Position numbers and translations under genes: made by a program. The notes beneath the pieces are model-generated. The model saw nothing but the letters and a program-made list of their open reading frames with translations, was not told where the DNA came from and ran no database searches. From the NCBI GenBank assembly GCA_964652735.1, contig CAZZCD010000002.1, positions 1 to 36,683 on the forward strand: a stretch of 36,683 nt of DNA. The letters are read 5' to 3'. This DNA comes from Candidatus Woesearchaeota archaeon (GTDB lineage Archaea > Nanobdellota > Nanobdellia > Pacearchaeales > GW2011-AR1). Positions 1-20,144 of the stretch are shown in pieces. Positions within the stretch are counted from its first letter, which is position 1. Each line of letters opens with the position of its first letter.

Positions 1-3000
1 ATTTCAACGGTGCAATTAGTCCTGTTACATTGTTATCATCTAAATAATAATTGCTCCAATCAGCATGGTCAAACCTGCTTGCAGTCATTCTATATGAAAC
101 TTCTCCTGCCTGGGTTCCGTGGATTGTTAAGGTGTTTTTCTCAGGGTTTTTTTCATACCAGACATCTCCATTAAATCCAGGGGTTAATATTATCTGGAGT
201 TTTTCCCAGTTCTCTCCAAAGTCTGTTGTCTGGTAAAATAGCCATAAATCAGAGCCTTTCTCTAGTTTGTCAAATTCAATTGTATAGTTGCTTTTCAGCA
301 TGACACTTCCTGTAACTTCTTCTTTTATCCCAACCATACCAGCCATATATGTTGCATAGTTCGTACCATCAATAGTATAAACAGGGTCAACTGTGCCGAC
401 TGTGATTTTGCTTACTTCGGTGATGGCATTGTTGTTCATATCAAGACCAGCACTAGTAATACGAAATATTTCATCATTACCAGTACTAAATGCCAAGGTA
501 TCAGCTGCATTACCAGGTCTGTATATTCCCGTGTCTCCATCATTTGTAAAAGTATATGCTGGATCACCAGCAGTAGAACTTCCATCTCCAAGCCGTAGTT
601 CATTTGCTATCCTCATATATCCAGCAAAAATAGATTCTCCTGTCCCGCTCACTGTCAAGTCGCCATCTATCTGCAGGTTTCCAGTAGAACCCAGATTCAT
701 CTTCTCAACATTATTAATTAAAAAACCAATATCAACATCTGTATCAAACCTAAGCGCCCAAGCAGCGTCATCATCCAAGAAACCAAATTCTGTACCTGTA
801 GCATATACATAACCATCTGCAACACCATCAGAACCAGCTAACTTAAATCCTGAAGCCGACGACGCACCTTTTACAGTCATTGTATTATAATCCCCAATTA
901 AAGTAGGGGTGGTTATTTCAGGTGAGGTCCCAAATACCCATTTTCCACTTCCTGTTTCATCTGAAACTCGTGTTGCCCAATTAGCAGAAGTTGTTGCAGT
1001 TATCTCTGTGTAATCAATTGCTGTTCCAAGTGTTGCTGCAACTGTTACTTTGTCTGTTGCTGCTCCTGTTGTTGTTATTCCTGTTCCTGCTTCAATTGTT
1101 GCAGTATTTCCACTAGAAATTGTCTGAGGAGTTCCAGAGGTTCCTGCAAGAGTCCAAGAACCATAATTATCAGAAGCTGAATCTGCAGTACAAGTAATTG
1201 TCCCTGCTGCACTTACAGAACTAACTCCTGTATTTGCTCCACAACTGCTTACTTCTAACCAGGCAGCTCCTGCATCTGTAATAGATCCTCCATTAATATC
1301 TAAACTTCCTTCAGCATCTATGTCTCCATCTTCATCAACTTCAAACTTTTGTACTCCCCCAACAGCTAATCCTAATAATGCATAGTCAGCTGTTGCACTA
1401 GCAGGATTAATGTAAACCGGTGCTCCTGAAGCAACTGTAGAAGAAGATAAATCTGTACTTGAAAACTTACCTGTCATTGTTTCATCTTGAGCAAGTGCTA
1501 AATACTGTGGATGGTCATCATCACCCAGACCACCTAAATCATCGTGATCAAAGTCTATCTCTCCAATAGAAATAGCTGTTCCTAATGTTGCTGCAACTGT
1601 TACCTTGTCTGTTGCTGCCCCTGTTGTTGTTATTCCTGTTCCTGCTTCTATTAATGCTGTATTACCCTGTGTAATTGTTTGGCCACTTCCACTAGTTCCT
1701 GCTAATGTGAAACTGCTCATGGTTCCTGTTCCTGTATCTCCTGCACAGTTTATTGTTCCGTCTGATGAGATACTGCTCACATACTGGTCAGCACTGCAAC
1801 CGCCATTGAAGAAGTTTGCTGTATCGTCATAAAGATTCCCGCCTCCTATATCCCAGTTACCATTAGTATAAAGACCAGATCCTGATTGGGATATGTAGTA
1901 ACTAGTCTGGAATGCAGTTCCAGTTCCTGGATAAATAGCTCCTTTAAAGTCAGTGTCATTATCTGTATAGAAAGTTCTGAAATTCTCCTGAACCCGATTG
2001 TTCATACCATAATGAGTGTATCCATTACCAGTGTACCAAATGCTTCCTCTTGCACTGGCCGCTTCTCCAAACTCAATGCCTGCACTGCCTGCGTCATTGC
2101 TCTCAATAAGTATCGTAGGGTCAGCATCATTATCTCCAATTTGTAACAATTCTGTTGGACTCGTCGTCCCTATGCCGACGTTGCCATTAACATATAGGCT
2201 TGCAGTTGAACCTTGGAGATTTGATGACGTGCCAATACCAACCTTCTTGTCAAAAAGGAAATTGCCCCATCCATCCCAGTACATCTTTCCAACTTGTGTA
2301 TCATCAGAGCGACTCGCATTTATTATAACCCTTTCATTATCATCTTCCAAGTGAATGTTTACTTCTTGATTAGCATTACCTAACTGAATATTCCCTGCAA
2401 CATGTAATTTTTCATCAGGGCTTGTCTGCCCGATGCCGACGTTGCCTTTCATATAAATTTCACCTGCCCCTTTAACATACATCAAATCAGACCCATCTTT
2501 ATCTTCAACTATTAAAGTTGTTTCAGTATTGCTATCTCCTGCCCGTATTCTAACACCATTACCAGTAGTAGCGTGAGTATTATCAAAACGTGCTATATAG
2601 TCTGCATTAACCGAATCAACTACATATAACTTATAATTACCAGGATTAGTCGTCCCTATGCCGACGTTTCCTGTTCCTTTTATTATCATAGACTCTTGTT
2701 CCGCAGTGCTATTATAAGTTACAAAATGCATGTCAATTAATGTACCACCAGGAGCGCGGGTATAAATCTTAGCATTATAGCTACCTTGGTTAAATCTTAA
2801 TTCAGTAGTTTCACCTACATCCCATGTAGGATTATGAAGTTCTACAATAGGATTTGATGTATCATAAACCTCCAAATTCGCCCCAGGACTAGTCGTCCCG
2901 ATGCCGACGTTTCCACCTGTTTCTATAACCATTCTTGGATTTGTAGCTAAATCATCTCCGCTTGCAAATGTAAAAGTATTGCTATTTGAATTATCTCTTC

Positions 3001-6000
3001 CAATAGCCCATCCTGCTGCTTGTGTGTCTCTAAATCTTATATCTGAATCACCTGTTCCACCACCATCAATAACTAAAACTGCATTAGCTGCATTTAATAA
3101 TTGCATAGTTCCTTCTCTTACATCTAACTTAGTCGCTGGACTCGTCGTCCCGATGCCGACGTTGCTCGTAATATTATCTATAGCCAAAGCAACTGAACTT
3201 GTCCCATAATTGTAAATCAGTAAATCACCTGAACTTACTGGACGATAAAGTTCCCATTGATAATTTCCATCTTCCATAAAAAAAATGCCTGCTTCTTCAT
3301 TATCAGGTGCATCTAAAAAAAGAAATGCATCTTGAGTAGAACTATTTATTAGTATGCCATCAAGAGCTGTGCTTGTTTCAACAGTTAATTTCTTAGCAGG
3401 GTTAGTTGTTCCGATGCCGACGTTGCCTAAAAAGTAATTATCGTTAGCAGATTCAGTCTGTCTAAAAGTAGCTATATTTGTAAGAGCTCTAGTATTATCA
3501 ATAATAGTAGTCCCATCTATAATAAAACGACTATCTGAACCATTTAACAAAAGGTTTCCTGTTCCTCCTATTTCTAATTGTTTGCTTGGACTCGCCGTCC
3601 CAATGCCGACGTTGCCGTCATTTTGGAATGTTGTTAAAATTGTTGTCCCATACGCTATTTTTATATCATTGCTATCAGCAAATATAGAATATGCATTTGC
3701 TTGACCAGTGTCATCTATAACAAAAGCAGGATTTGCTGAACCTTCAATTTCTAAAAATGTAGATGAACCACCATCTTCTCTTGTTGGACTCGTCGTCCCA
3801 ATGCCAACCTTATCAGTATTACTATCAACAAACAAAACACTTGAATCAACACTAAAGTTATTTGCTCCTAAAACAACATTTTTGAAAGCACCTGTATATG
3901 GAACATAAGTGTCTGAGATGTTTGTATCTTCTGCTCCGTAAATTGTTCCTGTTACATTCAAATCTCCCACAACATTTAATGTGTTTTGTGGGGTTGCTGT
4001 GCCGATGCCGACGTTGCCAGTGGTATACAACTGGTCTGTATATGTATTCTTCCAATATCTAATACTACTACCTAAATCTAAACTACTGTCAGCACTAGGT
4101 TTAAGAACAGCATTAACTTGGACAACACTTGTGGCTGAACCCAAATATAAATCAGAAGCTTTTGTTGTTATCAATGAATATCCTGTTCCATCACCAGAAG
4201 TATCTGTAATTTTTATTCCCCTACTATTTACACTATTAACAACAATGTCCAACTTCGCCGAAGGACTAGTCGTCCCAATGCCAACCTTATCAGTATTACT
4301 ATCAACAAACAAAACACTTGAATCAACACTAAAGTTATTTGCTCCTAAATCAACATTTTTGAAAGCGCCTGTATAAGGCACAAAATCACCTGTAACATTC
4401 ACACCATTAATATATGTATTATGCGCTACAATATCATTTGCAATAAAGTTGTGTGTTCCCTCTATTGCTAAATCATAAACATGTTGTGGCTCGTGAGTTT
4501 TAATTGAAACAATCTTGTCAAAGAAAATATCAGCAGAAACATTTAAATATTTATTACCAGTATCTTTAGTTATGGTTGAAGTTACTATATCAATACCTGG
4601 AAAATTGAAAGAGAAAATGCAAAGAAGTGGCATAGGACTACATGTATTAGTTGAAAGACTAATAAAACAATTAGAAGAAGAGAAAGAAATGATAGATTGG
4701 TCAGTTAAATTGCAAAGAGCTTCTAGGAAAGGTAGGTTTGATGAACTGAAAAGAAGAGGATTAGTATAAATGAAATTTGTAGTTGATACAAATGTGTTAT
4801 TAACATTTTTTTGGGAGGATTCTTTTACTAAAGGAATATTACTTGACCAAGATTTTGAATTCTTTGCCCCAGAATATGCGTTAGAAGAAATCAATGGGCA
4901 TATATCTGAAATATTGCAAAAAACAAACACCTCATTAGAGCAATTCAAAGAACTAAGAAGAGATTTAGCTATCTGTGTTGAATTTATTCCATTAGAAAAA
5001 TATTCAGAATTTCTACAAAAAGTTTCAGATATTTCAGATAAAAAAGATGTTGATTTTATCGCATTAGCACTAAAACTCAAACTTCCTGTCTGGTCTAATG
5101 ACAAACATCTTAAGCAACAATCTTTAGTTAAAATATTCACAACAGAAGAATTAGTTAAATCCTTAGAATCCTCATAATTTCCTAACTTAGGAACAGCAAT
5201 CTCCTCACCTTCTTCTAATTCACTAACTTTAACCCAACCATCCTCTGTTAAATAAGGATGATTCCCAGTTGTGTTAACAGCTCTGCCACTCTCTGTAATC
5301 AACTCATAAATAGGCTTTTCACCCATATCTAATAAAGCTTTGACTTTGTTTGAAACAATCTCACCTGTTTCTTCATCTAAACTCAAAACATATTCACCAG
5401 CTTCAATATCTTTAATCTGCTTCTCTGAACCGTCTGCCATTGAAATCAGGCTGTCTTCTGCAACACACAATCCTGTTACGTTTAAGTCTCCATCAACATT
5501 CAAGGTGTTTTGTGGTGTTGTCGTCCCGATGCCGACGTTTCCACCTTCTAAGATTGTCATCTTCACATCATTACTTGTAGCAAAATATAATGGTTTGGCT
5601 TCTAACACATTAATCATACCATATTCTGCTGCATTATATCCGATATTCATACCATCTGAAATAAGAGCTCCTGTTTCATCTGTTGTAAATTTAATATATG
5701 CCTGACCTAAGCTGTGAATCTGAAGTGGGCGTGTTGGACTCGCCGTCCCGATGCCGACGTTGCCGTTAATCGCTAAAGCCGTACCCGCCGCCAAAGATTG
5801 ATCTGCCACATAGCCAATTACCTGGGCTCCTGATGATTGAACTGCCCAAGTATAAGATGACCCCGAACCAATATGTAACAATCCAAGAGGATTCGTCGTC
5901 CCGATGCCGACGTTGCCGTCTCCTCTTACGAGAAAATAGTTGCTTGAACCTGTTCGGTCTTGAATATAAAATGCTTTATCAGAAGAATTTGTCCCAGCTT

Positions 6001-9000
6001 TTATCCATGGTCCAAAACTCTGACCCGTTGTACTTCCTGCAGTAATTTCAGAAACATAATAATTATCCGCACCTGTCAATTCAAGCGCTCGTTGAGCGGC
6101 TCCTGCTAAGATTTCTACTTTATTACTTGGATTCGTAACTCCAATGCCGACGTTTCCTTCAACAATCAATCCATTAGCAGGAGGTTGTATATTATAATAA
6201 CCTCCTACCGAGAGACCAGAATTACTATGAAGTCCCATACCATACGCACCTTCATAAAATCTCATAAAATTAATGCCGGTAGTATTCACATTTTGTATAA
6301 ATGCTTGCACCCCTCCTGACGCTGAGTTTTCCAATCTTAAAGTAGGGTTATTATCCTTCAAATGAAGTAAGGAAGAAGGACTACTCGTCCCAATCCCAAC
6401 CATATTAGTATTTGAATCAACAAACAAAACACTTGAATCAACACTAAAGTTATTCGCTCCTAAATCAACATTGTAAAGAGCACCTGTATATGGAACATAA
6501 GTGTCTGAAAGATTTGCATCTCCTGCTCCGTATATTGTTCCGGTCACGTTTAAATCTCCAACAACATTCAAAGTGTTTTGTGGTGTTGTTGTGTTAATGC
6601 CGACGTTGCCGCTTCCTATAATAGCCAAAGCATCTCTGAAATCAGTACCATTAGATTGACTTAGATAAAGGTTACCATATATGTCATTACCTTTTGCTAT
6701 AATTTGAGTTGTCCCAAAGGCAGTATTAAATTGTCCCCAAGTATGATAATCATCTCCACCAGTATACCTATAAACCCGTATTCCATCAGTACTTCTATTT
6801 TCAGCACCACTAATTTTATTTAAGGTTAAATGAGCAGGAAGTGTTGAAGCGTCCCCGATGCCGACGTTTCCTCCTTGTTGTATTCTCATTGCCTCTGCAA
6901 CAGTACCACCTTGCTCTACTGCAAAAGCTAAATCACTATCGGTAGAACCTGTATCAATACCTGATATTCTGGCTATATTACCAGAACCTAAATTAAATAA
7001 AAGATTAGCAAATGAGTTAGTAGCACCATCTTCGTTTTGTATCATAATAGTTGCATCTGCTTCCTGACCACTAGAACTACTAGCATCATACGCTGTGGCA
7101 TCATCCTTCCTAACAACTAATAATGATGCTGGTGTTGTCGTCCCGATGCCGACGTTGCCACCTGTTTCAACCGTTACCAATTCCTGACTATTCATAGTAT
7201 TCACAGCCCCGTAAGCAATTTGGAATTTAGTATCATCATTCATACCTAATTTCCATGAATTAGCTTCTGCTGCTCCACCGCCAACTTCATAATAAATTTC
7301 ACCTGCTGCACTTTTTCCTCTAACTTCTATGGAAACATCTGCTGCATTTGTAAATGATGCTAATTGCTCATTATCTCCTGTAACTTCTAAAACATGCCCA
7401 GGTGTCGCCGTCCCGATGCCGACCCTATCAGTATTACTATCAACAAACAAAACACTTGAATCAACACTAAAATTATTTGCTCCTAAATCAACATTTTTTG
7501 TTGCACCTGTGTAAGGCACAAAATCCCCTGTAACATTCACACCATTAATATATGTATTATGAGCAACAATGTCATTTGCAATAAAGTTGTGTGTGTTTTC
7601 TATTGCAAGGTCATAAACATGCTGTGCTGGGTGTTGTTCTATTGAAGTTATTTTTTCCCATTTTATTATGTTTTGCCCATAATCAGGCACTGCTATTTCC
7701 ATTCCTTCTTCTAAATAAATTACTTTAAGCCACTCTACACCATCAGAAAGTTTTAAATATTCCTTGTTACTATTTTTATTTATGGCTGAATTAATAACTT
7801 CCCCTGAAACTGAATTAGATTTTAAATTAATGTCTAAAGCTGTAGTTCGATTAATGAAACAAGACATATCTGTAAGATTTAAACAAACAAGAGAAATAAC
7901 TGATGAAGATTGGGAATTTTGTGAGCAAATTAATTGGCATCCTGTTGATGAACTACCTATGAAAGAAGAATTTGTTAAAGAACTAAGAAAAAGAGAAAAA
8001 GGTCCGTTCATTAAATTTAATTCTGTGGATGAACTATTTAAAAAATGAGTTATACTCAAATTATTCATCCCAAATGTCAAAGAGAAATTAATAAGGTCTG
8101 TAGAAAAAATCCTATTCTTGAAAAAGTCCTTAGAAAAAAGATGGATGAAATCATCCAAAACCCCGGTCACTATAAATCTCTCAGACATGAGCTTGCTGGA
8201 GAAAGAAGAGTTCACATCCTCAAAAGTTTTATCCTCAAATTCAAAATTGATGAAGTCAACAAAATAGTTATGTTCCTCGCCTTCAGGCACCACGACAAAG
8301 CCTACTGATTTTTCCCCTAATTTTTCCTCAGAAGATAATTTAACCAAATAAGGATGATTTCCTGTTGTATTAATGCTTCTACCAGATTCTGTGGTTAACT
8401 CATAAATAGGCTTTTCACCCATATCTAATAATGCTAACACTTCATTAGAAACAATGTCTCCTGTTTCTTCATCTAAACTTAAAACACGCTCTCCCATTTG
8501 AACATCTTTAATCTCTTTTTTAGTTCCATCTGCCATTGAAATCAGAGAGTCTTCTGCAACACACAATCCTGTGACATTCAAATCTCCATCAACATTCAAT
8601 GTGTTTTGTGGTGTTGATGTGTTGATGCCGACGTTGCCGTCATTTTGAATCCTGACCCGTTCGTTCCCAGCCGCTTGACCTCCAGAATAAAATCGTATAT
8701 TACCAGAAGTATGACGTGCTATGATACTCAAACCCCCACTTAAATCTCCATCTGCTTCAATTGCTGCACCATCTTGCAGATATGCCCCAATAGGAGTATA
8801 TGCACTACCAAATGTAAAGAGATTCAACCAACCGCCATCGGCTTGAATTGAAGCTAGAGAACGTGAGTTGTTAGTTGGTTCTTTTACATAGAGGTCACCA
8901 TCATAAACTTCCAACTTCGCCGAAGGACTCGCCGTCCCAATTCCGACGTTACCACCTTCTAAAATAACCATATGCTCAGCTAATGTTCCAGTTCCTATAT

Positions 9001-9478
9001 TTTTCTTAAATATTAATCTTTCATTATCACTTTCAATGCCAACTATCCATTCATCTGTAGGAGACACTGAAGTTCCACCACTAGAAAGATACAAGTTTGA
9101 ATCTCCTCCACCTGCTTCGTGAATTTGAATAAGTCCTTGGACATCAAGTGCTTGATGTGGAGCAGTCGTCCCGATGCCGACGTTTCCTGAACTATCTAAA
9201 TTAATCCCTGTAGTTCCAGCATACTTAATATTCATTACATCATTACCTTGGTTATAATATAAATAACCTTTATTAGTGCCAGCATCTACTTGGAATCTTA
9301 TACCTACATCTGTATCTGCTGAATTAGCATCTGTATCTGAATTTATATCAATCCATGCTTCTCCTGTATCCGCTACATCTAACTTCTGTGAAGGACTCGT
9401 CGTCCCGATGCCGACATTACTGTTGTTATCAACATAAACATCTTCCTGATGCACGAAAGAATCGTGATATTCTGTTCT
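1..9478 (-). CDS. Giant repeat-rich secreted/surface fibre protein, 3'-partial (continues past the window start); hosts two inteins
   Basis: Plus-strand triplets in phase 2 mod 3 contain no TTA/CTA/TCA. I checked this by hand for 2-1650, 4430-5281, 5912-6154, 7742-8563 and 9380-9478. For the remainder it is implied by the absence of any in-phase minus-strand ORF call. An ORF with no stop inside the window is not listed, as shown by the unlisted partial pyrH at the right edge. The translation is Gly/Thr/Asn/Val-rich with 23 in-frame G-N-V-G-I-G-T-T-S-P modules and a DDHPQYL motif. Its repeat units match those in ORF 9479..12646. Confidence 0.8.
1020..1648 (-). repeat. Direct duplication of a 74-nt core (1020-1093 and 1575-1648) within a roughly 555-nt module repeat
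   Basis: The two copies differ at 4 positions. Both encode ...EAGTGITTTGAATDKVTVAATLGTA... Confidence 0.8.
4542..4549 (+). promoter_or_regulatory. TATA box of the intein-2 VapBC operon
   Basis: TTTAAATA (context TTTAAATATT) lies 30 nt upstream of ATG 4572. Confidence 0.5.
4572..4769 (+). CDS. VapB-like antitoxin (65 aa) embedded antisense in intein 2
   Basis: The ORF track calls a TTG start at 4515, which would lie inside the intein C-lobe. ATG 4572 is 30 nt downstream of TTTAAATA. The N-terminus MVEVTISIPGKLKEKM is typical of a small RHH/AbrB-type antitoxin. Its TAA stop is immediately followed by the vapC ATG. Confidence 0.6.
   Translation: MVEVTISIPGKLKEKMQRSGIGLHVLVERLIKQLEEEKEMIDWSVKLQRASRKGRFDELKRRGLV
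4770..5177 (+). CDS. vapC: PIN-domain toxin VapC (135 aa) embedded antisense in intein 2
   Basis: The N-terminus is MKFVVDTNVLL (first acidic residue). It continues ...APEYALEEI..., ...DVDFIALALKL... and ...VWSNDKHL, giving the PIN acidic-residue pattern. Size and position directly after a small antitoxin ORF also fit. Confidence 0.8.
   Translation: MKFVVDTNVLLTFFWEDSFTKGILLDQDFEFFAPEYALEEINGHISEILQKTNTSLEQFKELRRDLAICVEFIPLEKYSEFLQKVSDISDKKDVDFIALALKLKLPVWSNDKHLKQQSLVKIFTTEELVKSLESS
7752..7759 (+). promoter_or_regulatory. TATA box of the intein-1 TA operon
   Basis: TTTAAATA (context TTTAAATATT) lies 30 nt upstream of ATG 7782. The VapBC cassette has the identical box and spacing. Confidence 0.5.
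7782..8048 (+). CDS. Putative antitoxin (88 aa) of the intein-embedded RelE-type module
   Basis: The ORF track calls a TTG start at 7764. I prefer ATG 7782, which lies exactly 30 nt downstream of TTTAAATA. Its stop overlaps the toxin start (ATGA at 8045-8048). It is small and acidic, and its C-terminus (...REKGPFIKFNSVDELFKK) resembles that of the antitoxin at 13866 (...YEKGRFVELK). Confidence 0.6.
   Translation: MAELITSPETELDFKLMSKAVVRLMKQDISVRFKQTREITDEDWEFCEQINWHPVDELPMKEEFVKELRKREKGPFIKFNSVDELFKK
8045..8308 (+). CDS. RelE/ParE-family toxin (87 aa) embedded antisense in intein 1
   Basis: The pattern ...NPGHYKSLRHELAGERRVHILKSFILKFKIDEVNKIVMFLAFRHHDKAY matches the RelE/ParE layout (NP..x..L...L.G..R..i...f.l.y.i.......v....HH..aY). 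Its size is as expected and it has a 4-nt overlap with the upstream antitoxin. Confidence 0.75.
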   Translation: MSYTQIIHPKCQREINKVCRKNPILEKVLRKKMDEIIQNPGHYKSLRHELAGERRVHILKSFILKFKIDEVNKIVMFLAFRHHDKAY

Positions 9479-12400
9479 CTATAGATATTGTGCTTTTACT
9501 TCATCTGCTGATAATGCCCGGTTGTAAATGCGAACATCATCTAAACTCCCATTTAAATAATTACCCCCCCTATTCCCAATTGATGTAAGAGTAAAAGATG
9601 AAAAATCAGTAGATGTACCGCTAACATCATTTTCACCATTTAAATATATAATTGTTTGATTGTTTGTCTCATCATAGGTTAATGTTATAAATACCCACTC
9701 ATTTAAATTCCAAGGATTACTATTTAAATAATCACCTTCGTCTGCTAGTGCCCAATGTATATGATTATATAAATAAACATCCAAACCATCATTGGTAGAT
9801 GTAAATATTCCTGTCCAATATGCTTTAGTATATTGATAAAGCCATAATTCAGCACTAAATGACCCTGATATTGTTCTTCCTACACTAATATAATCATCTC
9901 CATCAAATTCAAAATCACCACCATTATTGAATCCACCTGATGAATTTGCTGTTGCTCCGTGATTTGTTCCGTGTTGATTGTAAATAGAACTATCTAAAAC
10001 AGTTTCGCTTCCTGCTGAACCTACAAGGTTTTCAGAATTAAAATTCATCGCTAAAATTAATCCTTCATCTGAAATCTCATGAATGCTTTTTGTATTTGTA
10101 AAACCATTAACATCTAATGTATAATTGGGACTAGTCGTCCCGATGCCGACGTTGCCTCCTGATTCAATTCTAAGAAGTTCTCCACCATTATATTGAAATA
10201 TATAATTACCTCCACTTATCCAATAACGGTCTAAAACAAAATCACCATTAGCATCATAAAACTCAATCGTCCCATAATGAGTTGCATCACTGCCCCCACC
10301 TATTTTTTTACTATTAGGTATGCTTAATTGATAAAGAGGACTCGTCTCCCCGATGCCAACGTTACCGCCTGCTTCTATTCTCATCTTTTCAGACCAACCA
10401 CTCTGTCCATAAGCACTATAAGTCCCAAACACTAAATCAGCAGGGGCATCAGAATCTCCAAAAGCAATATATGAATCAGTAGCATCTGCTGTTAAGATTA
10501 TAAAATTATCATTTGTATCCTCTTTTATCCCAAATGTAGCACTGGCTTTAGTTATATCTAAAGTTTTGGTTGGACTAGTCGTCCCAATCCCAACCATATC
10601 AGTATTTGAATCAACAAACAAAGTATCTGTGTCTACAGTCAGATTCTTCTTCAGCTCTGTGTTTCCGTAAACAATAAAATCATTAACTACACTCATGTTC
10701 TGCTTTGTCAGATTCATAGAAGTTATATTATAAACATAAATTGTCTGTGCATAAATACTGCCTGCGTCAATTGTAACACCTCCAGAAGCCCAGTCTCCAT
10801 CTACATCCAAGCTTCCTGCAATATCAAAATCCCCTACTACAGAAGTGTTCAAAGGCATGAAGAAAGTTGAGTCATAGCCATCCAGGGTCTCAGAACCCTG
10901 AGCAGATATATTAATGCATGTCAAAGTATCTCCAATTATTTGAACAGCATGTCCAGCAGGACAGGCAGAAGGATAATTTGTAAGATTTGCCCATCCGAGC
11001 AAACTTGTTCCATAATTCAAAGCAACTGTTTCTGTATAACCTTCTCCAGGTGTTCCTGAAACACTTATTCCACTTCCAGAAGCAACATCTCCGACATAAT
11101 TTCCAGTTGTATCTGTTCCAAGAACAACAGAATCTGGCTGCACAGCTGTAACTCCTGTGCTTGAAATATTAATATCTCCAGAAACAGCTTTTGTTTCCCA
11201 GGCAGTTCCAGAACCAATCAAAATATTTCCAGAAGTTGCAGTGGTTGTTCCAAGAGATGAGCCATTTATCTTAACAACATCTGGATTTGGATAAGTTCCA
11301 GATAAATCACCACCTGCAGTCTGTCCTTCTTTAATATAATTATTATCAAAATAAGTAGTATTTACATTTATAGTAGTTGTTCCGCCCAAAGCCACAGAAC
11401 CTCCTCCTATCAAACCAGTGCCTGCAGTAATAGTTAAAGTTGAATTAGCCAAGTCTACATTTCCAACAGCTCCGTCAGTTATCATAGCACTAGTTATTGA
11501 GTCCACTTGGTCTTCATTCACATACCTAATATCTCCTGTCTGGTTAAGCTTAGTCTCATTAAGAATAAAATAATTACTTGCATTCTTATAGATATAAATC
11601 CCTCCTGCATAATATAAGGTATCTGTATTAATATCTTCAGAACACTCCCAAGCAGAAGAAGTAGCATTCCACTTAGCAATCTCTGTATCTGCACAGCTCA
11701 ATCCTGCAAGAGTGTCATTCTCTCTAAGATCAATAGTCTGATTAAGCTGGCTTTCTGAAAAACTTAAAGTTGAACCGTCAAATGTCAGATAATCGCTGTC
11801 TTCTGTCCAATTAAATCTTCCTTTGAACCAGTCTGCTGTCACATTTCCTGTAACATTAACATCACCACCAACCCTGATATCTCCTGTAACATTTATATCT
11901 CCAGAAACATTAACATCTTGAACAAATAAACTTGTTATTCTATTTATCAAGCTTCCTAAAAAGCTGAAAAATCCTGAACTAGCACTTACATTATAACTTC
12001 CTAAAGTAAGATTAGAATCCACACTAACCTCACTCAAATTAACATCTGTTGCCCTAAATGCATAAGGAACTCTTCCAAGCTGAGATACATTCTTCAAAGT
12101 TCCATCTCTGTAATAACATAAGTAATACTGGGTGTCATAATCTAGTAAACTGAGATTCCCTCCTCCTGAGCCAACTGTTGGAAGATAAAGTGAAACAATT
12201 CCTCGTGTATCTGTAGTTTGTGAGGTAGAATGGTTATAAACAACATCAGGACCACAAAGTGTACTTGAATTATCTGTAATATTAAATCCAAAAGTAAACG
12301 TTCCTGTTTCAATTGTTCCATTAGAAAATGTTGTCTGAAGATTTATATGAAAAGTGTCATTGATTGGAGCAGCAGAAACCATGCTTAAAAAGAATATCAA

Positions 12401-12646
12401 ACTTGAAGCCAAAAATAAATTTATTAATAATTTCTTAGAACTTGTAAATTTTGGATTTTGTTTTTTAACAGTTTTTTTATTTTTCTGTTTAGATGGATAT
12501 TTTTTAAACTCTATCTTTTTCTTACTAACTGAAATATACCATACACTACTTGACATACAATTATTAATCAAAGACCAATCATAAAAATTAGGAACCATTT
12601 CAGGTCTAAAACAGGGTATTTTGGGCCTTTTGTATGTTTTTTCCAT
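9479..12646 (-). CDS. N-terminal part of the giant surface protein (signal anchor, fibre repeats, LamG-like jelly-roll domain); ends at a TAG in the same phase as the downstream 9.5 kb frame
   Basis: ORF track gives 1055 aa. An ATATAAAA box lies 29 nt upstream of ATG 12646. There is a hydrophobic anchor LLINLFLASSLIFFLSMVSAAP and more than 30 N-x-S/T sequons by eye. Three NVGIGT(T/E)SP-type modules are present. The C-terminal ...GSLDDVRIYNRALSADEV is typical of LamG/concanavalin-like domains. Confidence 0.85.
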   Translation of the reverse strand: MEKTYKRPKIPCFRPEMVPNFYDWSLINNCMSSSVWYISVSKKKIEFKKYPSKQKNKKTVKKQNPKFTSSKKLLINLFLASSLIFFLSMVSAAPINDTFHINLQTTFSNGTIETGTFTFGFNITDNSSTLCGPDVVYNHSTSQTTDTRGIVSLYLPTVGSGGGNLSLLDYDTQYYLCYYRDGTLKNVSQLGRVPYAFRATDVNLSEVSVDSNLTLGSYNVSASSGFFSFLGSLINRITSLFVQDVNVSGDINVTGDIRVGGDVNVTGNVTADWFKGRFNWTEDSDYLTFDGSTLSFSESQLNQTIDLRENDTLAGLSCADTEIAKWNATSSAWECSEDINTDTLYYAGGIYIYKNASNYFILNETKLNQTGDIRYVNEDQVDSITSAMITDGAVGNVDLANSTLTITAGTGLIGGGSVALGGTTTINVNTTYFDNNYIKEGQTAGGDLSGTYPNPDVVKINGSSLGTTTATSGNILIGSGTAWETKAVSGDINISSTGVTAVQPDSVVLGTDTTGNYVGDVASGSGISVSGTPGEGYTETVALNYGTSLLGWANLTNYPSACPAGHAVQIIGDTLTCINISAQGSETLDGYDSTFFMPLNTSVVGDFDIAGSLDVDGDWASGGVTIDAGSIYAQTIYVYNITSMNLTKQNMSVVNDFIVYGNTELKKNLTVDTDTLFVDSNTDMVGIGTTSPTKTLDITKASATFGIKEDTNDNFIILTADATDSYIAFGDSDAPADLVFGTYSAYGQSGWSEKMRIEAGGNVGIGETSPLYQLSIPNSKKIGGGSDATHYGTIEFYDANGDFVLDRYWISGGNYIFQYNGGELLRIESGGNVGIGTTSPNYTLDVNGFTNTKSIHEISDEGLILAMNFNSENLVGSAGSETVLDSSIYNQHGTNHGATANSSGGFNNGGDFEFDGDDYISVGRTISGSFSAELWLYQYTKAYWTGIFTSTNDGLDVYLYNHIHWALADEGDYLNSNPWNLNEWVFITLTYDETNNQTIIYLNGENDVSGTSTDFSSFTLTSIGNRGGNYLNGSLDDVRIYNRALSADEVKAQYL

Positions 12647-12667
12647 TTTGCTTGGTTACCTTACAAT

Positions 12668-13539: not shown

Positions 13540-13660
13540 GAGCCTGTAGCTCAGTCTGGTTAGAGCACTGCTCTTATATGAATCTAATTCGCAAGGATTA
13601 GTTTCTCTTGGAAGATTCTAAGAGAGGCAGGGGTCCTCGGTTCAAATCCGAGCAGGCTCA
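13540..13660 (+). tRNA. tRNA-Ile(UAU)-like with a 46-nt intron (13579-13624) at the canonical 37/38 position
   Basis: I folded it by hand. Acceptor is GAGCCUG/CAGGCUC, D stem GCUC/GAGC and anticodon stem CUGCU/GGCAG. The loop is C-U-UAU-A then the intron. T arm is CUCGG-UUCAAAU-CCGAG and the discriminator is A. TTTAAATA lies at 13509-13516, 31 nt upstream. Confidence 0.75.
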
Positions 13661-13741
13661 TAAAACTTTTAAAAAGTTTTAGATCAAACCTAGATACTTA
13701 TCAGTTATCTTTAAAAACTAATTTTGATAATTCTTTATAAT

Positions 13742-13814
13742 GCCCCGATAGTTCAGAGGCCAAGAATGCAAGGTTTTCAACCTTGTGACCCGGGTTCGAA
13801 TCCCGGTCGGGGCG
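13742..13814 (+). tRNA. tRNA-Glu(UUC)
   Basis: Acceptor is GCCCCGA/UCGGGGC, D stem GUUC/GAAU and anticodon stem CAAGG/CCUUG with loop UU-UUC-AA. T arm is CCGGG-UUCGAAU-CCCGG. Confidence 0.9.
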
Positions 13815-13839
13815 TTATAACCCTAATTTAAAAGAAAGA

Positions 13840-18970: not shown

Positions 18971-19016
18971 CTAAGTGGTTATAAATATTTATATTCTCCT
19001 TTAACTATAATGTTAT

Positions 19017-20144
19017 ATGAAATTTAACATTCTGCAATATTTACCTAACACAACAAAAATAATGATAGATAAAGAAATAAGAAAAGAATTATTTTCTAAT
19101 AAATCTATAAGTGAATGGAGTAAATCTCTTAATGTTCCTTTAAAAAACATAAGCAGATATATCAATGGGACAAGATCCATTCCGATAACATTATTAACTG
19201 AATTGGCCAAATCAAAGAAGATAAACAGTAAATTACAAGATAAAATAAAACTTAAAATAACTAAAAGCGGGAATTATCTCAGAATTGGCCCAATAATTAA
19301 AATAGATGAAGACTTGATATATGTAGCAGAATTGATTAAAGGGGATGGACATATCACCCCCAATTTCTGGAGGATAATCTTTGTGAATAATAATGGATTT
19401 TTAATAACTTATGTTCATAATTTTTTCAAGTCTTTAGGAATAAAACAAAGCCAGATAAGCCTTATTAAAAGAAAAGATGCTAATTTTCTTACTATAAGAT
19501 CATCCTTATTAGCCATATTATTCAATAAAATTTTGGAGGTTCCATCAGGAAGAAAAAAAGAATTAAATATTCCTGAATTCGTACTTTCAGACAGAAATTT
19601 AAGTATCGCGGCGGTTAGGGGAGCATTTGATGCTGAAGGACATATAACTTCAAAAGGTTCTAGAAGGATTTCTATAACATCAAATAGTAAAAAATGGTTA
19701 ACCCAATTAAAACAAATCTTAGAGAAGTTAAATATAAATTCAAGAATATTTGAAGACAAATCAAAAAGAAAAGAGCCACTCTACAGGCTCTTTATATCCC
19801 ATAGACAAAATCTCATAAAATTTCTAAAAATAATCAAACCTTTACACACGAAAAGAAAAGAAAAATTAAAAGAAAGATTATCTGATTATACAAAAAATCC
19901 TCAAAAAGAATTTCATAAGAGAATATTGCTCTCAATAAAAAAGGGAAATACCAGAAGAAGAGAAATTGCTAGCGATATAAAACAGGATTTAATATTAATT
20001 GGGAACAATATTAATTGGTTAAAGAAAAAAAGGTATATAGATTCTTTCGAAAAGATTTATACAAACAAAGGATGTTACCATAAATACAAAGTTACTGGAA
20101 AAGGGGAAGGATATCTAGAAAAATCACTTTCTTTCTTCGATTGA
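19017..20144 (+). CDS. Free-standing double-motif LAGLIDADG homing-endonuclease-like protein with N-terminal HTH
   Basis: Two dodecapeptide motifs are present: YVAELIKGDGHI and IAAVRGAFDAEGHI. The N-terminal SISEWSKSLNVPLKNISRYINGTRSIP looks like an HTH. The 3' end overlaps the thrS 3' end convergently by 21 nt. Confidence 0.8.
   Translation: MKFNILQYLPNTTKIMIDKEIRKELFSNKSISEWSKSLNVPLKNISRYINGTRSIPITLLTELAKSKKINSKLQDKIKLKITKSGNYLRIGPIIKIDEDLIYVAELIKGDGHITPNFWRIIFVNNNGFLITYVHNFFKSLGIKQSQISLIKRKDANFLTIRSSLLAILFNKILEVPSGRKKELNIPEFVLSDRNLSIAAVRGAFDAEGHITSKGSRRISITSNSKKWLTQLKQILEKLNINSRIFEDKSKRKEPLYRLFISHRQNLIKFLKIIKPLHTKRKEKLKERLSDYTKNPQKEFHKRILLSIKKGNTRRREIASDIKQDLILIGNNINWLKKKRYIDSFEKIYTNKGCYHKYKVTGKGEGYLEKSLSFFD

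Follow-up and report, generated by a model that had tools for sequence, protein, structure and literature searches.

What occupies the space between the two splicing lobes of an archaeal intein? The window analysed here is a stretch of 36,683 nucleotides (nt) from a Candidatus Woesearchaeota archaeon (contig CAZZCD010000002.1 of GenBank assembly GCA_964652735.1, positions 1 to 36,683), and its left part is taken up by a giant archaeal surface-protein gene on the minus strand (2..9478), whose frame runs for 3159 codons without a stop and continues off the window's left edge (>3159 amino acids, aa). This host gene encodes a giant repetitive protein with GNVGIGTTSP-type repeats, and none of its three extein segments matched a Pfam family. 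The motif TPQNTLNV(D/V)GDLNVTG occurs in it four times; two copies have an intein inserted (8567-8578 and 5471-5482) and two are uninterrupted (6539-6550 and 3947-3958). The intein-less target DNA can be written as a ..GATCTTAATGTTACTGGT|ACT..-type site, and the predicted spliced product is a repeat resembling the two uninterrupted copies. The intein at the second interrupted copy, intein 2 (4418..5467, minus strand; 350 aa, residues 1338-1687 of the host frame), carries on the opposite strand a two-gene cassette resembling a vapBC toxin-antitoxin (TA) operon. Coding is thus nested on the two strands, and both coding layers are maintained.

By its profile matches and catalytic residues intein 2 is a class 1 intein that is predicted to splice. 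Its sequence, in brief CVAEDSLISMADGSEKQIKDI...TTGNHPYL...VYDLAIEGTHNFIANDIVAHN/T, starts at GL/CVAEDSLISMADG with Cys1 (5465-5467), contains block B as TTGNHP (TxxH), and closes with block F/G, VYDLAIEGTHNFIANDIVAHN, which ends in the His-Asn of ..IVAHN (Asn codon 4418-4420) and is followed by Thr at position +1. Residues T67, H70 and P71 are nearly invariant among 29 relatives. The Pfam model Intein_splicing matches at 1.5e-27 (96.8 bits, cut-off 35.8), and the match stretches profile positions 1-155 over residues 8-350, so that a large insertion lies between the lobes; NCBIfam intein_Nterm (5e-8) and intein_Cterm (4.5e-7) match as well, TIGR01445 and TIGR01443 both exceeding their cut-offs.

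An AlphaFold2 model of the 350 residues, built from the 29-sequence alignment, predicts a HINT fold. The N-terminal splicing lobe (5168..5467, minus strand; intein residues 1-100) is modelled as beta strands with a per-residue confidence score (pLDDT) of 91-97, and the C-terminal lobe (4418..4537, minus strand; residues 311-350), which tblastn matches to the C lobes of three of the loci described below (L006, L081 and L089), scores 85-96. Between them lies a Ser/Asn/Leu-rich linker of 210 aa (4538..5167, minus strand; residues 101-310), which is what promoter, vapB and vapC yield when translated in antisense; it matches no Pfam family, scores below 50 and is almost without secondary structure. 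A preliminary description of this DNA had placed an insertion between the lobes, which stands, at 4529-5176, which does not: the model puts the boundaries at 4538-5167, a span that coincides almost exactly with the cassette. The best Foldseek matches to the model are the Ssp and Npu DnaB and Mtu RecA mini-inteins (E 1e-8 to 1e-5). With such mini-inteins (Ssp and Npu DnaB; PDB 6frg, 6frh, 4o1r and 1mi8) intein 2 would share the HINT fold of N and C lobes and the class 1 catalytic residues, but their linker is short, and that of intein 2 is 210 aa of nonsense sequence that reads, in reverse complement, as an operon.

On the plus strand the cassette begins with a BRE/TATA-like element, AGAAACATTTAAATA (4535..4549), which includes TTTAAATA at 4542-4549, forms the cassette's left edge and ends 22 nt 5' of the vapB ATG, a spacing of the leaderless type. 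A role as promoter is suggested by its conservation, since the motif stands at an equal distance from the ATG in other intein-embedded copies (L006, L016 and L089) and in free ones (L003, L004, L010, L015 and L024). The vapB-like antitoxin candidate (4572..4769, plus strand; 65 aa, ATG 4572 to TAA 4769) has invariant W43, Q48, R52 and R55 in its C-terminal half; its stop abuts the ATG of vapC, and the two genes are in the same frame. The toxin candidate, vapC (4770..5177, plus strand; 135 aa, ATG 4770 to TAA 5177, MKFVVDTNVLL...WSNDKHL), matches PIN_2 (PF10130) at 3.9e-19 (69.7 bits, cut-off 22.4). The intein, TTTAAATA and both open reading frames (ORFs) lie exactly where they had first been reported, and the vapC stop codon (5175-5177) does have one base, 5177, in common with the last codon of the N lobe as then drawn, the intein-frame Asn codon 5177-5179.

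Several observations make vapC a candidate PIN-domain VapC toxin. Over 43 homologues the acidic residues D6, E40 and D93 are invariant and D95 and D111 at least 90% conserved, and all of them are present in the window's protein, which upholds the PIN assignment made earlier. The family profile matches PDB 2fe1, the PIN protein PAE0151 (E = 0.0018), and a small ORF of 63-98 aa precedes the PIN gene in about 70 of 78 loci, joined to it by TAA-ATG or ATGA. Similarity among the cassettes of the window, L006, L016 and L089 begins exactly at the BRE/TATA motif, right after the intein C lobe, and the other edge falls within a few codons of the vapC stop. The cassette would therefore be a minimal transcription unit of promoter, vapB and vapC. 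Terminal inverted repeats and target-site duplications were sought around it, with short AT-rich chance matches as the sole result and no signature of transposition, and a scan of 4300-5600 for sigma-70 promoters and terminators, a model that does not apply to an archaeon, gave sites no more numerous than in shuffled sequence. In a clade with 80-aa antitoxins (e.g., upstream of 2306 in L036, in L041, and at 2700-2750 in L079), the stretch from the TATA-like box to the antitoxin ATG contains a palindrome, AACGTAnnnTACGTT, which is kept in free and embedded copies alike and is likely an operator for autoregulation.

Could the intein frame be open across the cassette by chance? Over 4572-5177 the intein frame contains no stop, as had been stated of the host frame, while the other two antisense frames contain 26 and 17. 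Synonymous resampling of both plus-strand proteins at the codon frequencies of the window yields on average 3.7 stops, with a probability of an open frame of 0.0017; the probability is 0.010 with the cassette's own codon usage and 0.004 when codon order is shuffled. Among 11 other genes of the window, 0 of 3812 windows of 216 codons are open in the equivalent antisense phase. Thus the open frame is non-random. It is not an intrinsic property of the protein family either: free copies average 4.4 stops and the resampled window proteins 3.7.

The open frame also bears on whether intein 2 might instead be a split intein or fractured gene, with N and C halves translated apart and spliced in trans and the TA genes simply lying between two genes. 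Split inteins whose halves flank a free-standing gene for an endonuclease are known (Dassa et al. 2009, as cited in later work), and like the cassette these hold a separately expressed gene in the endonuclease position; there, however, the halves are divided by stop and start codons. Here no stop follows the N lobe, and the frame is continuous over 2-9478 and kept open by selection, which would be pointless in a split arrangement. We regard this alternative as scarcely credible.

Is the arrangement found elsewhere? A search returned 110 VapC homologues, of which the few with source names come from Pacearchaeota, Woesearchaeota and an uncultured archaeon. We fetched 6 loci from species-representative genomes, where contigs were scanned with a single protein, 80 from metagenomes, where an alignment served as query, and 1 by exact look-up. 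Embedding was called by tblastn with intein and Hint lobes, independently of the state of the antisense frame. The cassette lies between canonical intein lobes in L006, whose host is the same GIGTTTP type of protein, in L081, and in L089 (from JGI 3300014656), whose cassette DNA is 92% identical to that of the window. Its position within these canonical inteins differs, following block B in L006 and the ..IAVP strand in the window, L081 and L089. In four further loci it lies between lobes of a second, Hint-like type (CYDNETxIxTENGWKYF ... LLVSPEHKVY ... GKIYDVDVxNDxVLVKR), whose Intein_splicing match is just under threshold; these domains (L005, 3592-5826; L019, 2322-3665; L022, 500-1711; L079, 2490-3680) bear their antisense cassettes inside giant ORFs. 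Lobe remnants adjoin the cassette in L016-L018 and L050. L005 holds a complete ORF of 2278 aa with two Hint-like domains, one holding a RelE/YafQ-like pair and the other vapBC, a combination of cargo that matches the window's.

Among distinct copies, all 10 embedded ones have a host frame that runs through vapB and vapC without a stop, and so have 8 of 59 others, the mean among the 59 being 4.4 stops (Fisher p = 1.3e-7). The reading of the minus strand given in the preliminary description therefore extends to every embedded homologue. Both vapB and vapC are intact in all 10, and the loci stem from NCBI, JGI and ENA assemblies.

How are stops avoided? In every embedded copy the third codon position of the host frame faces the third position of the vapB and vapC codons. 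In this phase an antisense stop arises only where Tyr follows a codon with T or C in its third position, or where His or Gln follows a codon with T there. Because wobble faces wobble, a synonymous change is enough to remove any of them, except where every codon of the preceding residue ends in T or C. For example, the conserved Leu-Gln of VapB is encoded by TTG, TTA or CTG before CAA in embedded copies, and by CTT-CAA in the free copies L003, L010 and L012. The Asp-Gln of VapC is GAC-CAA in embedded copies, even in a genome of 33% G+C, and GAT-CAA in L014. Similarly, at the Val/Ile-Tyr position the sole embedded copy with Tyr, L019, uses GTA-TAT, and free copies use GTT-TAT or ATT-TAT. Dipeptides in which Phe, Tyr, His, Asn, Asp or Cys precedes Tyr are absent from the embedded copies and occur at 0.42 per locus elsewhere. 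Finally, all 10 embedded copies have vapB and vapC in one frame, the stop directly before the ATG, versus 28 of 59 others that share a frame (p = 0.0015); with the usual ATGA overlap, one of the two genes would fall in an unfavourable phase. Stop-freeness is thus reached by three means: phase placement of both genes, choice of third-position codons, and avoidance of certain dipeptides.

Which strand, then, is selected as protein? The ratio of nonsynonymous to synonymous substitution rates (dN/dS) cannot by itself separate the strands, because the third codon positions of the two frames coincide; we therefore judged the strand by the asymmetry between codon positions 1 and 2. For VapC, p-distances at plus-strand positions 1, 2 and 3 are 0.273, 0.132 and 0.439 among embedded copies and 0.334, 0.160 and 0.518 among free ones, so that position 1 exceeds position 2 by a factor of 2.06 in the former and 2.08 in the latter. 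The second position of the minus frame, which is plus position 1, is twice as variable as its first position, the opposite of the pattern for a selected minus-strand protein. In the plus frame, median dN/dS for embedded versus free copies is 0.18 versus 0.19 for VapC and 0.25 versus 0.20 for VapB. Pairs in which both members are embedded include L079-L050 at 0.077 (dS 0.56) and L006-L016 at 0.14. These patterns indicate that the plus-strand TA genes are under ordinary purifying selection while embedded, kept as functional genes. The minus-strand frame, by the same comparison, is kept only stop-free, and its 210-aa read-through product is not conserved as a protein.

These results leave little room for a relic or an artefact, in which the giant gene would be a pseudogene or a misassembly with a chance open frame, or the TA genes dead linker DNA. 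An in-frame TAG (9479-9481, minus strand) does stand just upstream of the giant frame, and the L016-L018 locus keeps an N-lobe remnant only. However, the probability of an open frame is about 0.002, the layout is replicated in 10 loci from assemblies of three archives, and L005 carries both cassettes in a complete ORF. Furthermore, the embedded copies keep vapB and vapC intact with dN/dS spanning 0.07-0.49, and retain catalytic residues and promoter. We consider this rival largely refuted.

The preliminary description had pointed to a second instance in the same gene with a different TA family, and this we also find. Intein 1 (7556..8563, minus strand; 336 aa) is paralogous to intein 2 (Intein_splicing 4.8e-22), and its frame is likewise open across an antisense pair that comprises an upstream ORF encoding a putative antitoxin (7764-8048, plus strand; 94 aa) and a toxin of the YafQ/RelE/ParE type (8045-8308, plus strand; 87 aa; TIGR00053 YafQ 2.1e-15, ParE_toxin 6.2e-6). 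The intein 1 cassette is inserted directly after block B (HPYL), at another point of the fold than in intein 2. Its putative antitoxin weakly matches a model of intein-containing replication factor C (RFC), NF003157, at positions 353-437 (E = 0.0012), which could be chance or a hint of related sequence in RFC inteins.

A search with the whole intein gave 46 relatives, the named ones from Nanoarchaeota, several lineages of the candidate phyla radiation (CPR), Omnitrophota and others. In the precomputed Pfam lists none of the 46 has a LAGLIDADG or HNH domain. The 14 relatives that we read include partial proteins with GNVGIGTTSP-type repeats and several with long Ser/Asn/Leu-rich slots. We read the opposite strand of the slot in three fetched contigs. 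It encodes DUF433 (1.7e-17) and DUF5615 (4.6e-12) in L090, an 82-aa ORF and PIN_2 (6.2e-18) in L091, and an 85-aa ORF and a ParE/RelE toxin (1.4e-10) in L092, a Kuenenbacteria (CPR) contig.

This census of cargo bears on the possibility that the PIN protein and its small, DNA-binding partner are an antisense-encoded homing nuclease of the intein. All antisense intein ORFs described earlier are homing endonucleases, and two of the four target-motif copies in the host gene are invaded. In addition, related inteins in two GNVGIGTTSP proteins of Patescibacteria (P0146 and P0150) hold in the same endonuclease slot an in-frame NYN domain (PF01936), a PIN-like nuclease that may be an undescribed type of intein-associated nuclease. 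PIN/VapC toxins, however, are ribonucleases. The nearest relatives of the window's pair (74% identity) are ordinary free two-gene loci among other TA pairs, and the slot of sister inteins holds RelE/YafQ, ParE/RelE and DUF433-DUF5615 pairs rather than DNA endonucleases. Profile searches of the antisense ORFs of intein 2 against Pfam and NCBIfam matched no endonuclease family. A homing role is in our judgment very unlikely.

A reverse-oriented type II TA unit in the dispensable loop between the intein's splicing lobes is our preferred explanation, which we consider probable, its proposed function included, and we suggest the following course of events. The ribosome would translate the giant protein through the reverse complement of the cassette, producing an unstructured linker of about 210 aa. 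The two intein lobes would fold around this linker, and protein splicing would excise lobes and linker together. The mature protein would thereby regain its normal repeat, ..DLNVTGL-TYINGVNVTG.., with the predicted splice-junction peptide ..GDLNVTGLTYINGVNVTGDFVPYTGAFK.. The cassette itself would be transcribed from its own BRE/TATA element as a leaderless vapBC mRNA. As intein 2 lacks a homing endonuclease, we propose, with less certainty, that the TA pair serves as an addiction module: losing the cassette, and the intein and surrounding gene along with it, would carry a penalty. In return the intein may give the TA pair somewhere harmless to insert within a very large gene, and antisense is perhaps the sole orientation that a gene pair with stop codons of its own can take inside an ORF.

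A number of observations weigh against this proposal. The second Hint type (L005, L019, L022 and L079) has neither block G nor the terminal Asn, and L005 has a degenerate block A as well. Its ability to splice is doubtful, so in these proteins the nonsense linker probably stays in place, and tolerance of the cassette does not strictly need splicing. Eight copies without recognisable Hint lobes are likewise stop-free, and therefore stop-freeness can outlive embedding or has another cause. In the closest embedded pair, window-L089, dN/dS for VapC is high (0.49), with few changes. The 65-aa antitoxin candidate has no significant match in Pfam or the PDB. Its best match is to NCBIfam VapB_Sulfo (E = 0.007, 16.9 bits, far below the cut-off of 60), Pfam RHH_1 weakly matches 2 of 26 members of the antitoxin family (at 0.04), and a PDB profile search with the family found nothing; the small upstream gene is conserved, and the VapB label first applied to it is provisional. 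Finally, expression, splicing and toxicity are all read from sequence, and an addiction function is no more than plausible.

The stop-free copies outside recognisable Hint domains (L008, L009, L015, L035 and L063, and also L013, L043 and L055) have antisense frames of about 250-410 aa that end just outside the cassette; in L009 and L013 the flanks are G+C-rich. In the VapC tree they are intermingled with embedded copies, so they may have escaped recently from Hint domains; alternatively, they may be cassettes in transit. L040/L044, with a stop-free antisense frame, keep a LLVSPSYKIY remnant. In L020 (189-1364, minus strand) an antisense-open frame of 392 aa without intein lobes runs through the vapBC cassette into a GNVGIG repeat, and its C-terminal region resembles, judged by eye alone, the intramolecular chaperone domain of phage tail spikes (Peptidase_S74-like).

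The cassette might instead be a pure hitch-hiker that survives in a neutral intein loop and brings no persistence benefit to intein or host gene, an account that differs from the proposed explanation in its last, inferred step alone. Close relatives are free-standing in TA-rich islands (L001/L004), stop-free copies exist outside recognisable Hint domains, and the cassette occupies at least two positions in canonical inteins as well as the second Hint type, which looks like opportunistic insertion followed by filtering. On the other hand, at least four TA families recur in one intein family whose 46 relatives have no LAGLIDADG or HNH domain in the precomputed lists, and this enrichment in TA cargo is easier to explain if the cargo helps endonuclease-less inteins to persist. 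We think hitch-hiking unlikely, albeit a contender to be taken seriously.

Regulatory coupling is also improbable in our estimate: the convergent TA promoter might modulate the giant protein through transcriptional interference or antisense RNA, or the giant transcript might modulate the TA pair. The conserved promoter of the cassette does oppose transcription of the host gene, and two such cassettes lie in one gene; the argument is nevertheless one of geometry, and the same cassettes work as free-standing loci. Such coupling would be compatible with the proposed TA unit in the intein loop rather than exclusive of it.

Extending the proposal, one may imagine an 'addictive intein', a separate class of composite selfish element: in the giant repeat proteins of DPANN archaea and CPR bacteria, inteins and intein-like Hint domains would have exchanged the homing endonuclease for TA operons and would persist by post-segregational killing rather than by homing. 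TA cassettes (PIN_2, RelE/YafQ, ParE and DUF433-DUF5615) would in turn be specialists, by virtue of stop-free antisense frames and single-frame junctions, in living within the frames of other genes, and would move between Hint loops, a movement that the grouping of L005/L019 and L006/L016 in the VapC tree suggests. We put this forward tentatively, as a conjecture that has somewhat less than an even chance of being right.

The surroundings of the giant gene are otherwise archaeal, as exemplified by a threonyl-tRNA synthetase with the archaea-specific editing domain. The in-frame TAG at 9479-9481 separates the giant frame from an ORF of 1058 aa (9482-12655, minus strand) whose C-terminal end is a Laminin_G_3/LamG domain, and there is no ATG nearby. 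The two may be one gene of >4200 aa, with a stop that is read through, recoded or erroneous, or two adjacent genes. Adjoining the threonyl-tRNA synthetase gene, a frame of 377 codons (19011-20141, plus strand) has a LAGLIDADG_3 domain (2.8e-19) without Hint lobes and is possibly a free-standing homing endonuclease or a regulator. Rfam detects, 5' of the tRNA-Glu (13741-13815), a second tRNA (13540-13660, plus strand; 56.8 bits) that ARAGORN misses, and its length of 121 nt suggests an intron-containing archaeal tRNA.

How does the arrangement compare with known systems? The observation made in the preliminary description is confirmed and its interpretation supported, with the correction that the architecture had been seen before: Gorbalenya (1998) and later Gogarten et al. 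(2002) reported inteins with antisense ORFs for LAGLIDADG endonucleases. Gosselin, Arsenault and Gogarten (2025; bioRxiv 10.1101/2025.01.02.630785) describe antisense LAGLIDADG and VSR-like as well as out-of-frame EndoVII-like endonucleases in inteins of actinobacteriophages, with an in-frame translation that has no recognisable fold, and propose that they originated by invasion of free-standing genes. In common with these non-canonical inteins, intein 2 has an independent opposite-strand ORF between the splicing blocks, an intein frame that reads through it, and a structureless read-through product. In contrast, the known cargo is a single LAGLIDADG or VSR-like homing gene, whereas here it is a two-gene TA operon with its own putative promoter; and the known hosts are replication and phage proteins, whereas here they are giant repetitive proteins of DPANN archaea and of a CPR bacterium. 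The architecture thus has a precedent, and the TA operon as cargo is the new element; a full-text search of the literature found no description of a TA operon inside an intein.

The cassette likewise resembles free vapBC (PIN_2) loci of DPANN archaea. For example, a Pacearchaeota metagenome-assembled genome (GCA_016181895.1; L001/L004) has the same two genes, of 65 and 134 aa, with 74% VapC identity, and free loci share the BRE/TATA motif and are under equal purifying selection. They differ in containing antisense stops, and about half have an ATGA overlap that puts vapB and vapC in different frames. A further parallel is the engineered entanglement of toxin and essential genes, as far as the available parts of the two sources present it (bioRxiv 10.1101/2024.11.07.622342; STALEMATE, PMC12455656), in which a gene lies inside a gene in an alternative frame so that their fates are linked. 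Those are synthetic designs; the case in the window is natural, recurrent and antisense, and would rely on splicing to discard the product of the overlap.

The layout of an antisense gene within an intein is hereby extended from homing endonucleases to other selfish cargo, and a second route of intein persistence is suggested, by addiction rather than by homing. The locus is also a natural case of dual-strand coding in which the fingerprints of selection can be read site by site. It provides a natural precedent for engineered sequence entanglement and for lodging cargo in intein loops, sites that disappear at the protein level. Finally, gene callers miss nested operons of this kind, and consequently the TA and defence content of DPANN and CPR genomes, together with the diversity of their inteins, has probably been under-counted.

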